Assembly: GCA_044070495.1 (NCBI GenBank)
Contig: JBIPSI010000046.1
Location: 1-29,857 of the forward strand
DNA length: 29,857 nt
Source of the DNA: Spirulina sp.
GTDB lineage: Bacteria; Cyanobacteriota; Cyanobacteriia; Phormidesmidales; Phormidesmidaceae
Direction: 5' to 3'
Part shown: positions 23,384-29,857 of the stretch, in pieces
Layout: each line of letters starts with the position of its first letter
Numbering within the stretch: the first letter of the stretch is position 1
Made by a program: the position numbers and the translations under genes
The notes under the pieces: generated by a model
What the model saw: only the letters and a program-made list of their open reading frames with translations
Database searches by the model: none
What the model was told of the DNA's origin: nothing

Positions 23384-24910
23384 ATGAAACTGGCCTATTG
23401 GATGTACGCTGGCCCCGCCCACATTGGCACCCTCCGTATCGCCAGTTCCTTCAAAAATGTGCATGCCATCATGCACGCCCCCCTTGGGGACGACTACTTT
23501 AATGTGATGCGTTCCATGCTAGAGCGGGAGCGGGACTTTACCCCCGTCACCGCCAGCATCGTGGATCGCAACGTGTTGGCGCGAGGCTCCCAGGAAAAGG
23601 TGGTCGATAACATCGTCCGCAAAGACCAGGAGGAACGCCCCGACCTGATTGTGCTGACCCCCACCTGCACCTCCAGCATTTTGCAGGAGGACTTGGCCAA
23701 CTTTGTGCAGCGGGCCAGCCTTGAATCCAAGGGCGATGTGCTGCTGGCGGATGTGAACCACTACCGCGTCAACGAACTGCAAGCGGCGGATCGCACCCTG
23801 CAACAGATCGTCCAGTTTTATACCGAAAAAGCCCGCAAACAGGGCACCCTACCCCAGGGCAAAACCGAAAAGCCCTCGGTCAACATCATCGGCCTGACGA
23901 CGCTGGGCTTCCACAACAACCACGACTGCCGCGAACTACGCACCCTAATGGCGCAGCTCGACATTGAGGTAAACCTGGTGATGCCCGATGGCGCGTCCGT
24001 CCACGACATCCAAACCATGTCTCGCGCCTGGTTTAACCTGGTGCCCTACCAGGAAGTGGGCCACCTCACCGCCGAGTATCTGCACACCGAGTTCGGGATG
24101 CCCTGCGTCAACATCACCCCCATGGGCATTGTGGAAACCGCCCGCTGCATCCGCGCCATCCAAGCCGTCCTCAACCAGCAGGGGGCCGAGGTCGATTACG
24201 AAGGCTTTATTGACGAGCAAACCCGCTTTGTCTCCCAAGCCGCTTGGTTCTCCCGCTCCATCGACTGCCAAAACCTCACCGGAAAGCGGGCCGTCGTCTT
24301 TGGCGACAGCACCCACGCCGCCGCCATGACCAAAATTTTGGCGCGGGAAATGGGCATTAAAGTTGTCCTGGCGGGCACCTACTGCAAATACGATGCCGAC
24401 TGGTTCACCGAGCAGGTGGGCGACTTCTGCGACGAAATTCTGGTCAGCGAAGATAATGGAGCCATCGCCGACCGCATCGCCCAACTGGAACCCGCCGCCA
24501 TCTTTGGCACCCAAATGGAACGCCATGTGGGCAAACGGCTGGATATTCCCTGCGGCGTAATTGCGGCCCCCATCCACATCCAAAACTTCCCGGTGGGCTA
24601 TCGGCCTTTCCTCGGCTACGAAGGAGCCAACCAAATTGTGGATTTGGTCTACAACTCCTTCACCCTCGGCATGGAAGACCACCTGCTAGAGTTCTTCGGC
24701 GGCCACGACACCAAGGAAGTGCTCACCGCTACCATGTCTGCCAGTGCAGACCTGGGCTGGAGTGCTGATGGCATGGCCGAACTGCAAAAAATCCCCGGCT
24801 TTGTGCGCGGCAAGGTGAAACGCAACACCGAAACGTTCGCCCGTGAGCAGGGCATTGGCCAAATTACCGCCGAAGTTCTCTATGCCGCTAAGGAGGCTGT
24901 GGGGGCTTAG
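23384..24910 (+). CDS. chlB: Light-independent protochlorophyllide reductase subunit B
   Basis: [18 protein letters not shown] start with AGGAGA upstream, [26 protein letters not shown]-terminal [14 protein letters not shown]; 508 aa. Confidence 0.98.
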
Positions 24911-24918
24911 GGGTTGCT

Positions 24919-24946
24919 GTTGGGGCGCACTGCGGTGCGCCCGTAC
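24919..24946 (-). repeat. REP-like palindrome with GTAC foot, copy 2, at the core/island boundary
   Basis: GTTGGGGCGCACTGCGGTGCGCCCGTAC, 26/28 identical to 14474-14501. Confidence 0.8.
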
Positions 24947-24973
24947 CGGGAGAAGCCAAATTTTTTGAGAGGG

Positions 24974-25126
24974 TTTCCGTATAATCGTCTTCCTGAGGCA
25001 TACTGTGTGGAAGCTATAGGTGTAACTCCCCGTCCTAGGGTGAATTATACGGAAAGCGCTGTTATAACTGCCCTCTACAAGGTAGTTATACGGAAAGCCT
25101 TAGTATAATAAGTTGTTATATCGCCA
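24974..25126 (+). other. Palindromic element ending in a GTT core site (attC-like right portion)
   Basis: 12-bp perfect IR TTTCCGTATAAT (24974-24985) / ATTATACGGAAA (25044-25055), second TTATACGGAAAGC at 25086-25098, hairpin 25063-25090, TATAAT at 25104-25109, end GTTATATCGCCA at 25115-25126. Confidence 0.55.
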
Positions 25127-25199
25127 CTGCTAGAAGTTCTGAACCTATAGACTCAATCAAAAGCTCTGGCTAATTCCCTCGCAGGAACCAGTTAAATCA

Positions 25200-26243
25200 A
25201 TGAGCGACATTGAAAAAGCGACAACTGCCATTACCACCATCACAGGTGCTGTATCAGACTTAGCTATAAATGGTGCAACTTCTCTACCAGAACCGATAAG
25301 GAAGAATGTATTTAAAGCCTTTGATCGACTTTGTACTGCGGCTTTAGATGTCCCAGTTGCATACCTTGAGGGAAAAGCGGCTGAGCGACGTGCCGAAACA
25401 CAGGCTCGTATCCATCTTATCTCGGCTAATGCAGAGCAGATTGCGAGACAAATGGACGTTCATCCTGAATACAGCCGAATTGCTACAGAAAAATATGGAA
25501 AGCGAATTCTTCAAGAGCAGATTAATCTGGATAAGGTCTGCAATATCGCAGCTCAGGAGGTAGCTCAGGCTGGAGAAGAACTCAATGATGCTGGCAGTTC
25601 TGATCAATCTGATCAAACGGAAGTACTGATTAGCGATGACTGGCTTGATAGCTTCCAAAAAGAAGCCTGCGGAAAAAGTAGTGAAGAGATGCAAATACTC
25701 TTTGGTCGAATTCTGGCTGGAGAAATAATGAAGCCCGAGTCATTCTCAATCAGAACTGTAAAAATAATGGGGCAGCTGGACAGTAGAGCAGCAAGACTAT
25801 TTCGACAACTCTGTTCTTTGTGTATAACTTTAGGCTACGGTGAGTTACTTATTGATGCAAGGGTGCCTTCTTTAGGTAAACAGGCAGGTCAAAACTCACT
25901 TCAGGAGTATGGACTTAGCTTCAGCAACCTCAATATTTTAGAGGAGTATGGGTTAATAATTTCAGACTACAACTCTTACATGAACTATATACCTGCAGTT
26001 GCGCGTAAAAATCAGGTGCCCCTGCCCTTCCGATTCAATAATATTTATTGGGGACTTGTTCCCAATAAACCTGATGATTGGCCACCCGCAAAAGACCTTA
26101 AAATAAATGGCGTTCAATTATCTACTTCTGGTAAAGAGTTGCTTAAGATAGTGGAGATTGAAAGTAGTCAAGGGTATACAGAGGCTCTTGTTAACTACTT
26201 TAAAGGGCTTGGCGTGGAGATGACAAGAGTGAATAATCTATAA
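25200..26243 (+). CDS. DUF2806-type protein, AT-rich, probable gene cassette
   Basis: ISDDWLDSFQKEACGKSSEEMQILFGRILAGEIMKPESFSIRTV matches the DUF2806 pattern from memory. Codon usage differs from the core genes. Confidence 0.75.
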   Translation: MSDIEKATTAITTITGAVSDLAINGATSLPEPIRKNVFKAFDRLCTAALDVPVAYLEGKAAERRAETQARIHLISANAEQIARQMDVHPEYSRIATEKYGKRILQEQINLDKVCNIAAQEVAQAGEELNDAGSSDQSDQTEVLISDDWLDSFQKEACGKSSEEMQILFGRILAGEIMKPESFSIRTVKIMGQLDSRAARLFRQLCSLCITLGYGELLIDARVPSLGKQAGQNSLQEYGLSFSNLNILEEYGLIISDYNSYMNYIPAVARKNQVPLPFRFNNIYWGLVPNKPDDWPPAKDLKINGVQLSTSGKELLKIVEIESSQGYTEALVNYFKGLGVEMTRVNNL

Positions 26244-26268
26244 CTCTCTCTCAACGCACCTGCGATAT

Positions 26269-26310
26269 TGGCAATATAACAAATGCGCTACAACGGAACA
26301 GTAAGCTACT
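26269..26310 (+). other. Truncated attC-like left arm (inverse core site)
   Basis: TGGCAATATAAC (26269-26280) is the reverse complement (11/12) of 25115-25126 and is followed by AAATGCGCTACAACGGAAC. No right arm is found before spacer R1. Confidence 0.55.
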
Positions 26311-26315
26311 AAATA

Positions 26316-26356
26316 ATCAGTCTGTAGGGTGGGCAATGCTAACTATTCTTCCCTTA
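26316..26356 (+). repeat. Cassette spacer repeat R1 (left part)
   Basis: ATCAGTCTGTAGGGTGGGCAATGCTAACTATTCTTCCCTTA, 35/41 identical to the start of R3. Confidence 0.85.
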
Positions 26357-26397
26357 TTGACGATAACGATTCTGACAGAACTGAAATCGCTTAACTC

Positions 26398-26757
26398 ATG
26401 AGCGGAATTGACCGAGACATCATCCCTGATCCCCGCCCAAGCTTAGTTGATCGTCACTTGCCAAATACCCCTCAAGTCCAACGACTGCTCCGAAGAGAAG
26501 GCAGAGCACACGTCTTCAATAATCTCGAAACCCTAAAACGAGTCACGCAGGCGATCATTGAGAGCGGAGAGCGAACCGGAATCGAGGATGAGGACGACGA
26601 TTACGAAAGATATGGCCTCTACTTCTCAGAACCCATCGGATACATAATTAGAATAGACGGGAGTCAAACGCCTCTTTACTACGGTGAGATCAAAATTGTG
26701 AAGTCAACAGGTGAGTATCATGCAATCCCACGCACCAGCCCTCGCAGAACAGGCTAA
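26398..26757 (+). CDS. Small putative toxin, Ntox50-like RNase pattern
   Basis: N-terminal DRHLP and C-terminal FSEPIGYII..G..IKIVKSTGEYHAIPR; overlaps the next ORF. Function inferred. Confidence 0.6.
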   Translation: MSGIDRDIIPDPRPSLVDRHLPNTPQVQRLLRREGRAHVFNNLETLKRVTQAIIESGERTGIEDEDDDYERYGLYFSEPIGYIIRIDGSQTPLYYGEIKIVKSTGEYHAIPRTSPRRTG

Positions 26758-26977
26758 AACATGGAAATTCCTGGAACTTTGGGTTGATCCATTTATTTTT
26801 CCACCCAAGGTTCTAATGCTAGTGGGTAATCAGGACGGTACTTGTCATATTTTTAACCCTGCGCTGAATTACAAACTTGTAGTCACTCACTCCAACTATG
26901 CAGCCGCCCAAGAATGGCTCCTTGAAGATGAATATGAACGGGTGAAGGGACAAATTTTAGCTGAAGAGGTTATGTAA
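26720..26977 (+). CDS. Small hypothetical protein, putative antitoxin/immunity partner
   Basis: ATG at 26720 (or GTG 26711) overlaps the upstream gene; acidic C-terminus AAQEWLLEDEYERV. Confidence 0.6.
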   Translation: MQSHAPALAEQAKTWKFLELWVDPFIFPPKVLMLVGNQDGTCHIFNPALNYKLVVTHSNYAAAQEWLLEDEYERVKGQILAEEVM

Positions 26978-26982
26978 GTTTA

Positions 26983-27002
26983 TAGGGTGATCTGCACCCA
27001 TC
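26983..27002 (+). repeat. Cassette spacer repeat R2 (internally deleted remnant)
   Basis: TAGGGTG-ATCT-GCACCCATC joins the left-arm start of R1/R3 to the GCACCCATC found near the end of R5. Confidence 0.5.
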
Positions 27003-27063
27003 ATTTTCGTTTAACCAAGAAGTTGCTGTTGACAAAGGAAATTAAATCATTGAAGGAGTAGAA

Positions 27064-27336
27064 ATGCAGATTAATATCGAACTAAACCAGGAATACGAAT
27101 CGAAGCTGGCTTATGTGCAGCAGCAAACCGATCAGCAAGATATCCAGGCTGTAATTGAGGCGGCGATTGATGTCTACTATCGTCAATTAGAAGTACCCCG
27201 CAAAACAGCCTTAGAAATCTTTCAAGAATCTGGATTTATTGGTTGTATTCAGACCGATGAAAATCTATCAACCAACTACAAGCCCATTGTTCGAGATGCG
27301 ATCCAGGCACGATTTAACCGTTCCCAAGAATTATGA
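27064..27336 (+). CDS. Antitoxin partner of the PIN toxin (RHH-like N-terminus)
   Basis: AAGGAG RBS, ATGA overlap with the PIN gene, C-terminal SGFIGC..NLSTNYK. Confidence 0.8.
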   Translation: MQINIELNQEYESKLAYVQQQTDQQDIQAVIEAAIDVYYRQLEVPRKTALEIFQESGFIGCIQTDENLSTNYKPIVRDAIQARFNRSQEL

Positions 27337-27755
27337 TTATTGCCGATACTGGGTTTTTCTTTGCCCTAGCCAACCGAGGTGATCGCTATCACTCAGCCTC
27401 ACTTTCCGCACTAGCAGACCTTACCGAGCCTTTGGTAACAACGTATCCAGTCATCACAGAAACCTGTTATCTGTTGCTTTCCACAGAAGGAAATTCCTCG
27501 CAATGCCGATTTCTGAGAGATATCATATCGGGTGCTGCTGATATCCTTCACTTACAAAAAACACATCTCATCCGAATTATTGAGCTTCTGGAAACCTACG
27601 CAGATTTGCCTATGGATATGGCCGATGCATCCCTTGTCGTTCTGGCAGAACACCTAGGACACGGACGAATTTTGACTAGTGATCGCCGCGACTTTAATGT
27701 TTATCGCTGGCAAAATAACAAGCCGTTCGAGAACCTACTGCTAAATTATCTATGA
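27333..27755 (+). CDS. vapC: PIN-domain (VapC family) toxin
   Basis: IIADTGFFFAL, VITETCYLL, MDMADASLV, ILTSDRRDF acidic tetrad. Confidence 0.93.
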   Translation: MIIADTGFFFALANRGDRYHSASLSALADLTEPLVTTYPVITETCYLLLSTEGNSSQCRFLRDIISGAADILHLQKTHLIRIIELLETYADLPMDMADASLVVLAEHLGHGRILTSDRRDFNVYRWQNNKPFENLLLNYL

Positions 27756-27838
27756 TCAGTCCGTAGGGTGGGCATTGCCCACCATTCTTCCCATAGGAGC
27801 CTACTGCTTTACTGTGTGGGCCGTACTCACTCTACTCA
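27755..27838 (+). repeat. Cassette spacer repeat R3 (most complete copy, REP doublet)
   Basis: GTAG-GGTGGGCA-t-TGCCCACC hairpin, central ATTCTTCCCATAGGAGCCTACTGCTTTACTGT, then the degenerate inverted REP GTGGGCCGTACTCACT-CTAC. Confidence 0.9.
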
Positions 27839-27903
27839 TTTGTCAAAAGGTTATGGGCTTTAGGTAAAGCTATAATTGAAACCAGGTGATTTGAACCAGA
27901 ATC

Positions 27904-28266
27904 ATGACTACAGTCGCTATCTTGCCAATCTCTAACCCTAATGGTGAAAAAGCCTACCGAGCCGTCGCAGGCGACAAATATTCCGTCGGCAAAACCGCAG
28001 GGCAAGCTTTAGATGCCTTAACCGCCCAGTTAGATGAGGTTGAATTTAGTGCGCTACTGGTCATTCAAAGCTTTCGTCCTGACTCATTTTTTAGTGCCGA
28101 ACAGCAGGAACGATTATCGGAATTGATGAATCTGTGGCGATCAGCCAGGGATCAAGGACAAGAGCTACCCCCAGAACAACAAGCCGAGTTGGATAATTTA
28201 GTTGAGATAGAACTACAAGCGGCAACAACCCGTACTTCAGCGTTGATGCAGCCAGAACATTCATGA
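27904..28266 (+). CDS. Hypothetical protein, putative antitoxin (HicB-like N-terminal pattern)
   Basis: YRAVAGDKYSVGKTAGQALDAL plus a helical acidic C-terminus; ATGA overlap with the HNH gene; TATAAT at 27871-27876. Confidence 0.65.
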   Translation: MTTVAILPISNPNGEKAYRAVAGDKYSVGKTAGQALDALTAQLDEVEFSALLVIQSFRPDSFFSAEQQERLSELMNLWRSARDQGQELPPEQQAELDNLVEIELQAATTRTSALMQPEHS

Positions 28267-28664
28267 ATCCTTACTACACAGCGGTTGCTCAACGCGCAAA
28301 TCATCGTTGTGAATACTGCAAAGCCCCCGAAGTCGTTTTCAACTTCCCGTTTGAGGTGGAGCATATTATTCCACTTTCTCGGCAAGGTTCCGACGATGAT
28401 TCCAACTTAGCCCTTGCCTGTCGTTCCTGCAATCTACGAAAAGGCAATCGAATCAGTGGATTTTCTTCTCATTCCAATTTAGAAACTCGCTTCTTTCATC
28501 CACGAGAAGATCGCTGGAATGATCATTTTCAAATCAATGCTGAATCTGGCGAAATCATGGGAATAACTCTTATCGGAGAGGTCACTATAGAGTATTTAAA
28601 GATGAATAGCCCTCCTCAAGTTGCAGCACGACAACTCTGGATTCGTCTAAACTTGTTTCCATAG
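28263..28664 (+). CDS. HNH endonuclease
   Basis: RCEYC, EVEHIIPLSRQGSDDDSNLALACRSCNLRKG. Confidence 0.92.
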   Translation: MNPYYTAVAQRANHRCEYCKAPEVVFNFPFEVEHIIPLSRQGSDDDSNLALACRSCNLRKGNRISGFSSHSNLETRFFHPREDRWNDHFQINAESGEIMGITLIGEVTIEYLKMNSPPQVAARQLWIRLNLFP

Positions 28665-28669
28665 CTGCA

Positions 28670-28732
28670 CAGTCCGTAGGGCGAACATTGTCTATCATTC
28701 TTCCTATGGGGACTTGCTACTTTGCTACTCAC
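28670..28732 (+). repeat. Cassette spacer repeat R4
   Basis: CAGTCCGTAGGGCGAACATTGTCTATCATTCTTCCTATGGG, 33/41 identical to R3, then a shortened tail ending CTACTCAC. Confidence 0.85.
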
Positions 28733-28781
28733 CTCACCGATCAGGGTTTTATAATAAAGCTACCTATGTAGCGAGTAGCCT

Positions 28782-29015
28782 ATGCTGAACTCATCGGATA
28801 CGCGGGAACAGATTTATCGCTATGTTGATCAACTATCCCAGGAACGACTGGCGGTGGTGCTCGATTTTTTGGCTTATCTAGTAGAACGCGACAACAGCGA
28901 CGCCACAGAAGAGTTGTTGGCCATACCTGGGTTTGCGGCTGAGTTAGACCGGGCTGAACAGGAAGCCGACACCGAGGAACTCGTTGATTGGCGGGTTTTG
29001 CGTAGCGATGTATAG
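28782..29015 (+). CDS. Antitoxin partner of the RelE toxin
   Basis: 77 aa, acidic, overlaps the relE start; TATAAT at 28750-28755. Confidence 0.8.
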   Translation: MLNSSDTREQIYRYVDQLSQERLAVVLDFLAYLVERDNSDATEELLAIPGFAAELDRAEQEADTEELVDWRVLRSDV

Positions 29016-29268
29016 GGTTAGGCTAACCAAGCCTGCCGCTAAGGACTATCGGTCGGTAGAGGCGGCATTGGCTAAACGGCTAGCTAAGGCGTTTGAGATG
29101 CTGGAGCAAAATCCGCGTCAGCACCCCAATATTAAAGCGTTAAAGGGAGAACTGGCTGGGCGCTACCGTTATCGGGTAGGAGACTATCGCGTAGTCTACC
29201 GTATTGATGACGACTCTACAGAAGTTATCGTTCTGCTGATTAAACACCGTCGAGAAGTCTACGATTAA
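29008..29268 (+). CDS. relE: RelE/ParE family toxin
   Basis: MYRVRLTKPAAKDY, IKALKGELAGRYRYRVGDYRVVY, IKHRREVY. True start is the ATG at 29008. Confidence 0.93.
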   Translation: MYRVRLTKPAAKDYRSVEAALAKRLAKAFEMLEQNPRQHPNIKALKGELAGRYRYRVGDYRVVYRIDDDSTEVIVLLIKHRREVYD

Positions 29269-29290
29269 CCGATGTTGCACCTGCTAATCC

Positions 29291-29385
29291 AATCAGCCTA
29301 GACTCTAGGGCCATGCCTGCCATGCCTGCCATTCTTCCATATGGGTCTACTACTTGACCGTATGGGCCGCACCCATCCTACTCAC
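29291..29385 (+). repeat. Cassette spacer repeat R5
   Basis: CCATTCTTCCATATGGGTCTACTACTTGACCGTATGGGCCGCACCCATCCTACTCAC aligns with the second half of R3. The left arm is replaced by a GCCATGCCT duplication. Confidence 0.85.
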
Positions 29386-29439
29386 TCCCACGAAGAAATT
29401 ACTATTGTCGAAGGGAAATAAATCATTGCAAGAGTAGAA

Positions 29440-29586
29440 ATGCAAATTAATATTGAACTGAACCAGGAATACGAATCAAAGCTTGCTTATGTGCAGCAGC
29501 AAACCGACCAGCAAGATATTCAGGCTGTGATTGAGGCGGCCATTGATGTCTACTATCGTCAATTAGAAGTACCTCGCAAAACGTAA
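29440..29586 (+). pseudogene. Second copy of the 27064 antitoxin, truncated by IS insertion
   Basis: Same 48 residues (MQINIELNQEYESK...LEVPRKT) as 27064-27207. Homology stops at 29582, where the IS supplies a TAA. Confidence 0.92.
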
Positions 29587-29857
29587 TTGTTCAGGGGTTG
29601 ACGAAAGAGTCAGGGTTTCAAGGGCAGCCCTTCAGGTAAGCTGATGCCATGAGCGTTGACGACCCGTCTGAGATTGAGATTGGTGGCATCCGGCTTCCCC
29701 GAGCGGACTGGGAGGGGACCCCTGCTAGTGTGCAGGCGTTAGTGGCGGCGCTGTTAACGACAATTGCTCAGCAGCAGGAACAATTAGGTCAGTTGAGCGA
29801 GCAATTTGTGGCGATGAGCGAGCGCATCTCTCACCTGGAAGAGCAGGTGCGACAGAC
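29583..29857 (+). mobile_element. IS66-family insertion sequence (ISBst12-like), left end, runs off the window
   Basis: Begins GTAATTGTTCAGGGG (IS66-type GTAA terminus) exactly where antitoxin homology ends. Confidence 0.8.
29649..29857 (+). CDS. IS66-family transposase N-terminus (partial)
   Basis: MSVDDPSEIEIGGIRLPRADWEGTPASVQALV...MSERISHLEEQVRQ, a coiled-coil leader; frame open to the window end. Confidence 0.75.
   Translation, partial: MSVDDPSEIEIGGIRLPRADWEGTPASVQALVAALLTTIAQQQEQLGQLSEQFVAMSERISHLEEQVRQ

Follow-up and report, generated by a model that had tools for sequence, protein, structure and literature searches.

A strain-variable array of toxin-antitoxin-like modules downstream of chlB in Spirulina is punctuated by a subfamily of REP doublets and may have been fed by an integron

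We analyzed a 29,857-nucleotide stretch of DNA from Spirulina sp. (GenBank assembly GCA_044070495.1, contig JBIPSI010000046.1, forward strand), hereafter the window, whose 3′ end carries an array of two-gene modules downstream of chlB. The modules are separated by co-oriented copies of one spacer, an inverted doublet of a repetitive extragenic palindrome (REP), that is, a REPIN, and their content and order differ among close strains. The reading that we favor, and to which we give about an even chance, is that of a real, variable and partly decayed array at an integron-fed locus, in which REPINs overwrote the ends of cassettes, with reshuffling of the modules at these repeats. A preliminary description had proposed that toxin-antitoxin (TA)-like cassettes accumulate here by recombination at REP doublets rather than at attC sites; joins between strains do fall at the spacer, and what that proposal overlooked is an attI-like site and at least four modules that are likely to be of integron origin.

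Results

Four overlapping gene pairs (modules A to D) lie on the + strand at the 3′ end of the window and are followed by the start of a fifth module, as had been described. Module A (26398..26977) consists of a DUF6972 gene (26398-26757) and a partner gene (26720-26977), module B (27064..27755) of a 90-aa gene and a PIN toxin, module C (27904..28664) of a 120-aa gene and an HNH nuclease (in its closest homologues this module is a cassette that bears attC), and module D (28782..29268) of a 77-aa gene and a RelE/ParE toxin (29008-29268). The fifth module is a second copy of the promoter region and first gene of B (29390..29582, + strand), 90% identical to the 5′ part of that pair over 193 nt and ended by an insertion sequence (IS); in one public sequencing run (X11) the sequence continues into B here. 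GC content is 0.42-0.51 in the modules and 0.58 in chlB. The pairs had been called TA-like, which holds for part of them: among modules A to D, toxin-family matches were found only for B (PIN) and D (RelE/ParE), where a recognized toxin fold in a two-gene operon predicts a type II TA system. The second gene of C (C2) is HNH, the first gene of A (A1) matches DUF6972 and has an Atlas lead to Ntox50, A2, B1 and C1 gave no Pfam match, and the partner genes had no family match above cut-off. A module A paralogue (72%) without a spacer was also seen elsewhere in the window's genome (G000), at C13:7242-7820, between what we take, from sequence, to be an agmatinase-like and a hypA-like gene.

The five spacer copies (R1-R5, + strand) stand at the module boundaries in the same orientation. 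R3 (27758..27840) is the fullest, an 83-nt inverted doublet of a GTAG-footed REP that runs from an AG at 27758, three nucleotides ahead of the GTAG foot of its left arm, through a centre of ~36 nt to an inverted right arm; the doublet reported earlier for R3 stands, with a right arm that is degenerate and without a fold above that of shuffled sequence. R1 (26319..26353) comprises the left arm and a short centre, an 'A-type' truncation that is always found before module A. R4 (28671..28738) retains the left arm and centre, with the right arm partly deleted, and R5 (29300..29386) has a damaged left arm and an intact centre and right arm. These four copies are strong (E-values 1e-22 to 3e-8, with a profile built from these very copies). 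R2 (26977..27010) is weak: it is a degenerate left arm with 22/41 identity to R3, is not among 13 centre-spanning nhmmer matches, and is the clear orthologue of a better-preserved copy behind module A in a related genome, G005. Identity to R3 is 35/41 for R1, the value first given, and 31/41 for R4 in register 27755/28668, which becomes the 33/41 first given if the copies are aligned by eye from 27757/28670. R2-R5 begin 0-32 nt past the preceding stop codon, rather than within about 25 nt. The profile E-values and the recurrence of the same spacer in relatives indicate that it is more than chance. TATAAT boxes do follow R3 (27871, before module C) and R4 (28750, before module D), and a sigma-70 scan, which returned 7 sites against 7.3 expected, gave no support for promoters.

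Two other identities for the spacer were rejected. It is not an attC site, as it has no R′′/R′ boxes, no stable fold and no Rfam match; nor is it a pdif (XerC/D) site, the copies being co-oriented 83-nt REP doublets (no dif profile was used).

As had been suggested, a profile was scanned against the whole genome, and only the left arm proved to be scattered, with 73 exact and 139 near-exact copies in G000 (118 in another count). Dispersal of the full spacer is ruled out by the finding that strong centre-spanning matches outside the array are limited to C43:4975 (partial) and C15:134035 (with a shorter centre). A model of the centre and right arm matched in 7/53 genomes of the genus; 11 of its 16 matches lie in chlB arrays or on a module-bearing contig of G019, and several others are also beside TA genes. 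At the 5′ end of the element, AG stands three bases before the foot in 22/23 compared copies, a count that omits one listed copy and four copies with broken left ends, and at the 3′ end CT stands three bases past the inverted foot in 9/11 full copies (by eye). With an AG start and a CT end, CT terminates each strand, which matches the C|T at which REP-associated tyrosine transposases (RAYTs) cut (PMC8266576). Genome-wide, 23/118 arms have AG at this position, against a background of 5.8%. The same left arm with its AG start was also observed in unrelated bacteria (Poribacteria by record title; L090, L095-L100, L103, L105 and L106) as single copies or short tandems.

The proposed kinship of the spacer with RAYT-associated REPs was borne out, since a cognate RAYT gene lies beside the same arm at C3:236206-236830 (NF047646, 127 bits). 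A GTAG-footed palindrome in many dispersed copies, its inverted doublet and a RAYT gene flanked by the same REP, three features of REPIN-RAYT systems, are present. The same arm adjoins 10/11 orthologous RAYT loci elsewhere in the genus, and a 189-190-aa frame is found in 7/11. In the other genomes with arrays, G005 retains only a RAYT fragment, the genes of G019 and G067 are paralogues (49-55%) that go with other repeats, and no cognate RAYT was found in G050. A different type of RAYT, with different repeats, lies right behind chlB in G024 (L071), G053 (L161) and G057 (L162), where its own inverted-repeat doublets flank TA fragments; these differences rule it out as the enzyme of the array, and it forms a parallel case at the same locus. 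The ~150-nt element inside the G000 RAYT (L082, C3:236206-236850) has inverted repeats at its termini, comes with a 9-nt duplication and contains another REP. A four-helix-bundle-like gene enclosed in heptamer repeats disrupts a second Y1 gene of this genome (L081, C16:82500-83250).

The array is present in the four genomes most similar at chlB (92-95% nucleotide identity) and in a fifth relative, the metagenome contig L104. It was found in 0/14 more distant chlB loci that were scanned, and 23 further loci were inspected by eye only. The order of modules is DUF2806-A-B-C-D-B′ in the window, Y-A-E-F-D′ in G005, Y-G′-A and then, on another contig, F-E-G′-D′ in G019, X-A′-F-E-H-G-D in L104, Z-G′-A-G-J-D′ in G050, where the locus is complete from chlB to the next core gene, and W followed by the start of F in G067. 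E is a PIN pair, F an HI1419/1420 addiction pair and J a ParE-like pair, and Z, in the first slot of G050 (L109:2568-4606), is a DS-32 PRTase-NADAR anti-phage pair above NCBIfam cut-offs. E-F in G005 is F-E in L104 and G019, each order within single contigs, and duplicates (copies of B and of G that are 90-93% identical) occur within arrays, where inserted IS elements and stumps (of A, B, D and G) are also common. Several of the joints recur in contigs from 8 public runs, among them the short spacer before D (27791-28741) in 5/8; these contigs are of mixed strains, with shares of 0.14-0.28, and are uninformative on habitat or expression. 'Goes back' joints in the runs give no evidence for circles, as any spacer maps best to R3. 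The strain comparison at chlB thus revealed the gain, loss, duplication and reordering that had been anticipated, with joins at the spacer, along with many deletion breakpoints elsewhere. Pattern scans of 185,579 genomes yielded 13 loci and scans of metagenomes 4, of which L104 was the sole new array; the others were two known relatives, a locus like that on C43, and single REPs in unrelated bacteria. Among 72,556 plasmid records, only 3 short PIN matches and no spacer-flanked modules were found.

The place of exchange within the spacer can be read from its variants. Left arms of copies that follow the same module have 1.23 derived mutations per pair in common (13 pairs, permutation p=0.0003, the pairs being related by descent and not independent), compared with 0.44 per pair for copies that share the module downstream (27 pairs, p=0.53) and a background of 0.38. 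Truncated centre types track the downstream module, as read from the truncations without a formal test: the A-type in 5/5 cases, the E-type in 3/3, and the D-type in 3 copies with 3 different upstream modules. As the left arm goes with the module upstream and the centre type with the module downstream, exchange would take place inside the spacer, and the sequences place most exchanges beyond the left arm, up to about position 34. The mobile unit is therefore not cleanly one of promoter, gene pair and spacer, as defined earlier. The zone of exchange includes a CT and the most strongly conserved positions of the element, and fits either RAYT strand exchange or ordinary recombination where the copies are most alike.

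An integron layer underlies the array, which begins upstream of the start first noted: an attI-like site and then a DUF2806 cassette stand at its head (25086-26318). chlB (23399..24910, + strand, named from sequence) is the conserved left anchor of the locus, and a REP hairpin of a different family from the spacer (24920..24950, + strand) lies directly 3′ of its stop codon. The attI-like platform (24960..25118, + strand) has repeated boxes and a GTT core (25115-25117), and strains diverge immediately 3′ of it. Its boxes resemble the region adjacent to intI on contig C33 (alignment scores of 81, reached by 0/300 shuffles, and 59, reached by 2/300), and the intI on C33 is intact and the only match above the TIGR02249 cut-off. 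The search that had been called for, for a RAYT or a tyrosine recombinase, thus found a broken RAYT on C3 and this intI. The GTT core and the divergence of strains point to an attI; no intI lies beside it. TATAAT boxes at 24980 and 25104, candidates for a cassette promoter (Pc), were not called by the promoter scan. Runs X5, X9, X15 and X16 depart from the window at 25118/25119, and X16 rejoins it at 26320, in R1, after 769 other letters. In G000, a paralogue (69%) of the boxes upstream of the attI-like site, at C12:124400-124720, adjoins a degenerate attC/attI-like hairpin.

The DUF2806 gene (25200..26243, + strand) occupies the first slot as an integron-type cassette, and other genes take its place in all relatives. 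Its cassette ends are complementary (14 nt, 93%): the left half of an attC-like site (26269..26318, + strand), which is complementary to the cassette start at 25113-25126, is cut off by R1, and no attC fold is left in it. Three further modules have homologues in other cyanobacteria that were seen by eye to carry a full attC-like site: C (4 of the 6 closest of 24), E (3/15 rows) and F (~10/25). Their junctions with the array spacer fall on a cassette-side AG in 3/3 cases, before R′′ in C, at the stop codon in E and at the R′ box in F. C meets R4 at a native AG just ahead of its lost attC, and F in G005 keeps a decayed attC whose crossover point forms the first bases of the spacer. At least four modules are therefore likely to derive from integron cassettes, as judged from sequence. 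Inspection by eye and folding (no attC covariance model was used) revealed no intact attC in the window array, nor was there an Rfam match; with fewer than two intact attC sites, the array falls outside integrons and clusters of attC sites lacking integrases (CALINs). On C43, one spacer copy stands at the end of an ordinary attI-cassette locus, which holds different cassettes in L102.

The REP arm is not confined to the array. It lies within 700 nt of 11/60 TA-family genes elsewhere in the genome, compared with 1.9 under random placement, an enrichment of about six-fold, and near 0/44 histidine-kinase domains, a control against which TA genes are favored by being short. All GTAG hairpins taken together are weakly enriched near TA genes (p=0.05-0.11). 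In G000, the islands C22:31800-35900, C8:16200-17750, C19:36000-40700 and C30:46990-47600 have TA-like or low-GC modules punctuated by the same arm with different centre subfamilies, and are candidate second arrays. The 3′ end of chlB gathers unrelated repeats and islands across the genus. The preliminary description would have been abandoned had the full spacer been scattered without enrichment beside TA pairs, and had relatives displayed a fixed order or breakpoints outside the spacers; neither outcome was seen in full, yet the arm is enriched beside TA genes genome-wide.

At its 3′ end the window closes with the start of the IS (29583..29857, + strand), inside which the contig ends; a second copy ends contig C14. 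The IS is presumably IS66-like, as first described; a family scan gave no IS66 match.

Discussion

We propose that cassettes enter at the front of the locus, likely through its integrase-less attI-like site with the IntI of the genome acting in trans. Copies of one REP doublet, probably placed by the RAYT, would then cap the cassettes, removing or disabling their attC, and the modules would now likely be duplicated, lost and reordered via exchange inside the repeats. Cassettes capped in this way would be locked against excision by IntI yet swappable among close strains. As the cognate RAYT is broken or was not found in the five array genomes, host recombination or slippage is a more likely agent than the RAYT today.

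Several observations weigh against this reading or against a dedicated machine. The spacers are decayed, and none folds better than shuffled sequence (z from 0.16 to -1.42). In G000, the RAYT on C3 is broken by a small insertion, which is accompanied by a 9-nt duplication, and a 3′ piece of the gene is duplicated. Many deletions fall outside the spacers (for example, 26520-26695 in 6/8 runs), stumps of A, B and G are joined via short microhomologies, and a truncation of C2 (from 28333 to a spacer; runs X5 and X9) lies at a point where the window sequence has no AG. The AG itself may reflect no more than the end of the element together with a microhomology of 2-3 nt. Left arms differ at ~5/21 positions, which makes them poor RecA substrates as well, and the segregation that locates exchange comes from related pairs and from truncation types. 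The attI motif occurs at 7 places and was designed with the window in view, and is thus partly circular. No attC was seen in the few homologues examined of A (1 paralogue), B (5) and D (1); with these and with homologues of G not searched, not all modules need be former cassettes. No activity, circle or intermediate was seen, including in the contigs of the 8 public runs.

The strongest alternative, which we regard as a possible but distinctly weaker account, is passive colonization: TA and defense genes amassed at an insertion hotspot, one REPIN spread into the gaps by local hops, the RAYT only copied the repeat, and slippage, unequal exchange or transformation between repeats, together with microhomology deletions, made all the differences. 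The enrichment of the arm beside TA genes elsewhere, the islands on C8, C19, C22 and C30 with REPIN subfamilies of their own between modules, the tendency of the chlB 3′ end to collect unrelated repeats and islands, and the decayed spacers with their plentiful stumps and duplicates all agree with it. Left unexplained by colonization alone are the loss or death of attC exactly at the 5′ end of the spacer in 4/4 former cassettes and the near confinement of one subfamily, in a single orientation, to this locus.

It is less probable still that the RAYT is itself a cassette recombinase, which would cut C|T in two spacers, excise a single-stranded circle of one module and paste it into another spacer. 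In its favor, exchange maps to the narrow zone between left arm and centre, with a conserved CT 3′ of the hairpin; truncated spacers offer merely ~34 nt of 75-90% identity; and another RAYT has its own doublets around TA fragments behind chlB in three relatives. In addition, one report describes strand exchange between REP substrates by E. coli TnpA-REP in vitro, and proposes gene capture (PMC3333891). It is opposed by the interrupted, fragmentary, merely paralogous or missing cognate enzyme in the array genomes, by the want of fold conservation in the spacers, by C and F in other genera, which have no spacer flanks (centre match in 0/24 and 0/25 loci), and by the 8 contig sets, in which no circles were seen. 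We would likewise call it doubtful that RAYT and REPIN form a second cassette machine able to take over integron arrays, with an HUH enzyme that cuts at C|T, overwrites attC with REP doublets and then excises TA and anti-phage modules and puts them back between doublets. That one long ancestral array with lineage-specific losses, or short-read misassembly at repeats, produced the differences is very improbable, for although the assemblies are fragmented and those of G019 and G067 break inside the array, the E-F and F-E orders, the duplicates (90-93% identical) and the recurrence of joints across independent runs (27791-28741 in 5/8) speak against it.

The locus offers a compact set of natural tests: about a dozen modules in six orders, among them a DS-32 pair in G050, with mapped junctions, a cognate enzyme that is known and has full-length orthologues, and donor cassettes for which the original attC is still readable in other cyanobacteria. 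On our reading, integron cassettes could in this way become invisible to attC-based searches yet remain swappable. Why bacteria keep RAYTs and REPINs is described as an open question in a preprint (bioRxiv 10.1101/2021.07.10.451892); a RAYT cassette machine, if true, would supply the host function long sought for RAYTs and would be an integrase-independent, single-strand cassette system. The literature searched, which leaves most subscription papers outside its coverage, holds no description of REPIN-punctuated TA arrays or of REPINs replacing attC.

Among known systems, the spacer is closest to REPIN/BIME (bacterial interspersed mosaic element)-RAYT systems, or REPtrons, and resembles those of RAYT group 2 or subclass 2.2 in its common GTAG-footed palindrome, inverted doublet, ~120-140 dispersed arms, RAYT flanked by the same arm and AG/CT ends. 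Capture of flanking genes has been proposed for such systems on an in vitro basis (PMC3333891), and in some strains the place of the E. coli REPtron is taken by hicAB (PMC3333891, PMC8266576, PMC6006769, PMC3733652, PMC5581495, bioRxiv 10.1101/2021.07.10.451892). Unlike in those systems, one subfamily is here confined to one locus, is co-oriented and separates whole TA or defense modules of strain-variable order. The array is like integron arrays and CALINs (PMC4889954) in its attI-like entry site, the turnover of its first slot, the presence of IntI in the genome, its TA and defense cargo and its attC remnants, and differs in having no intact attC in the window and no adjacent intI, with REP doublets in the place of attC. 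With the pdif (dif) modules of Acinetobacter it shares the shuffling of small TA-rich modules at short flanking sites and a host enzyme that acts in trans. The array differs from them in its co-oriented REP doublets on a chromosome. pdif modules have XerC/D sites in alternating orientation and lie on plasmids. The array works like an integron or dif-module array, and its spacer belongs among the REPINs.

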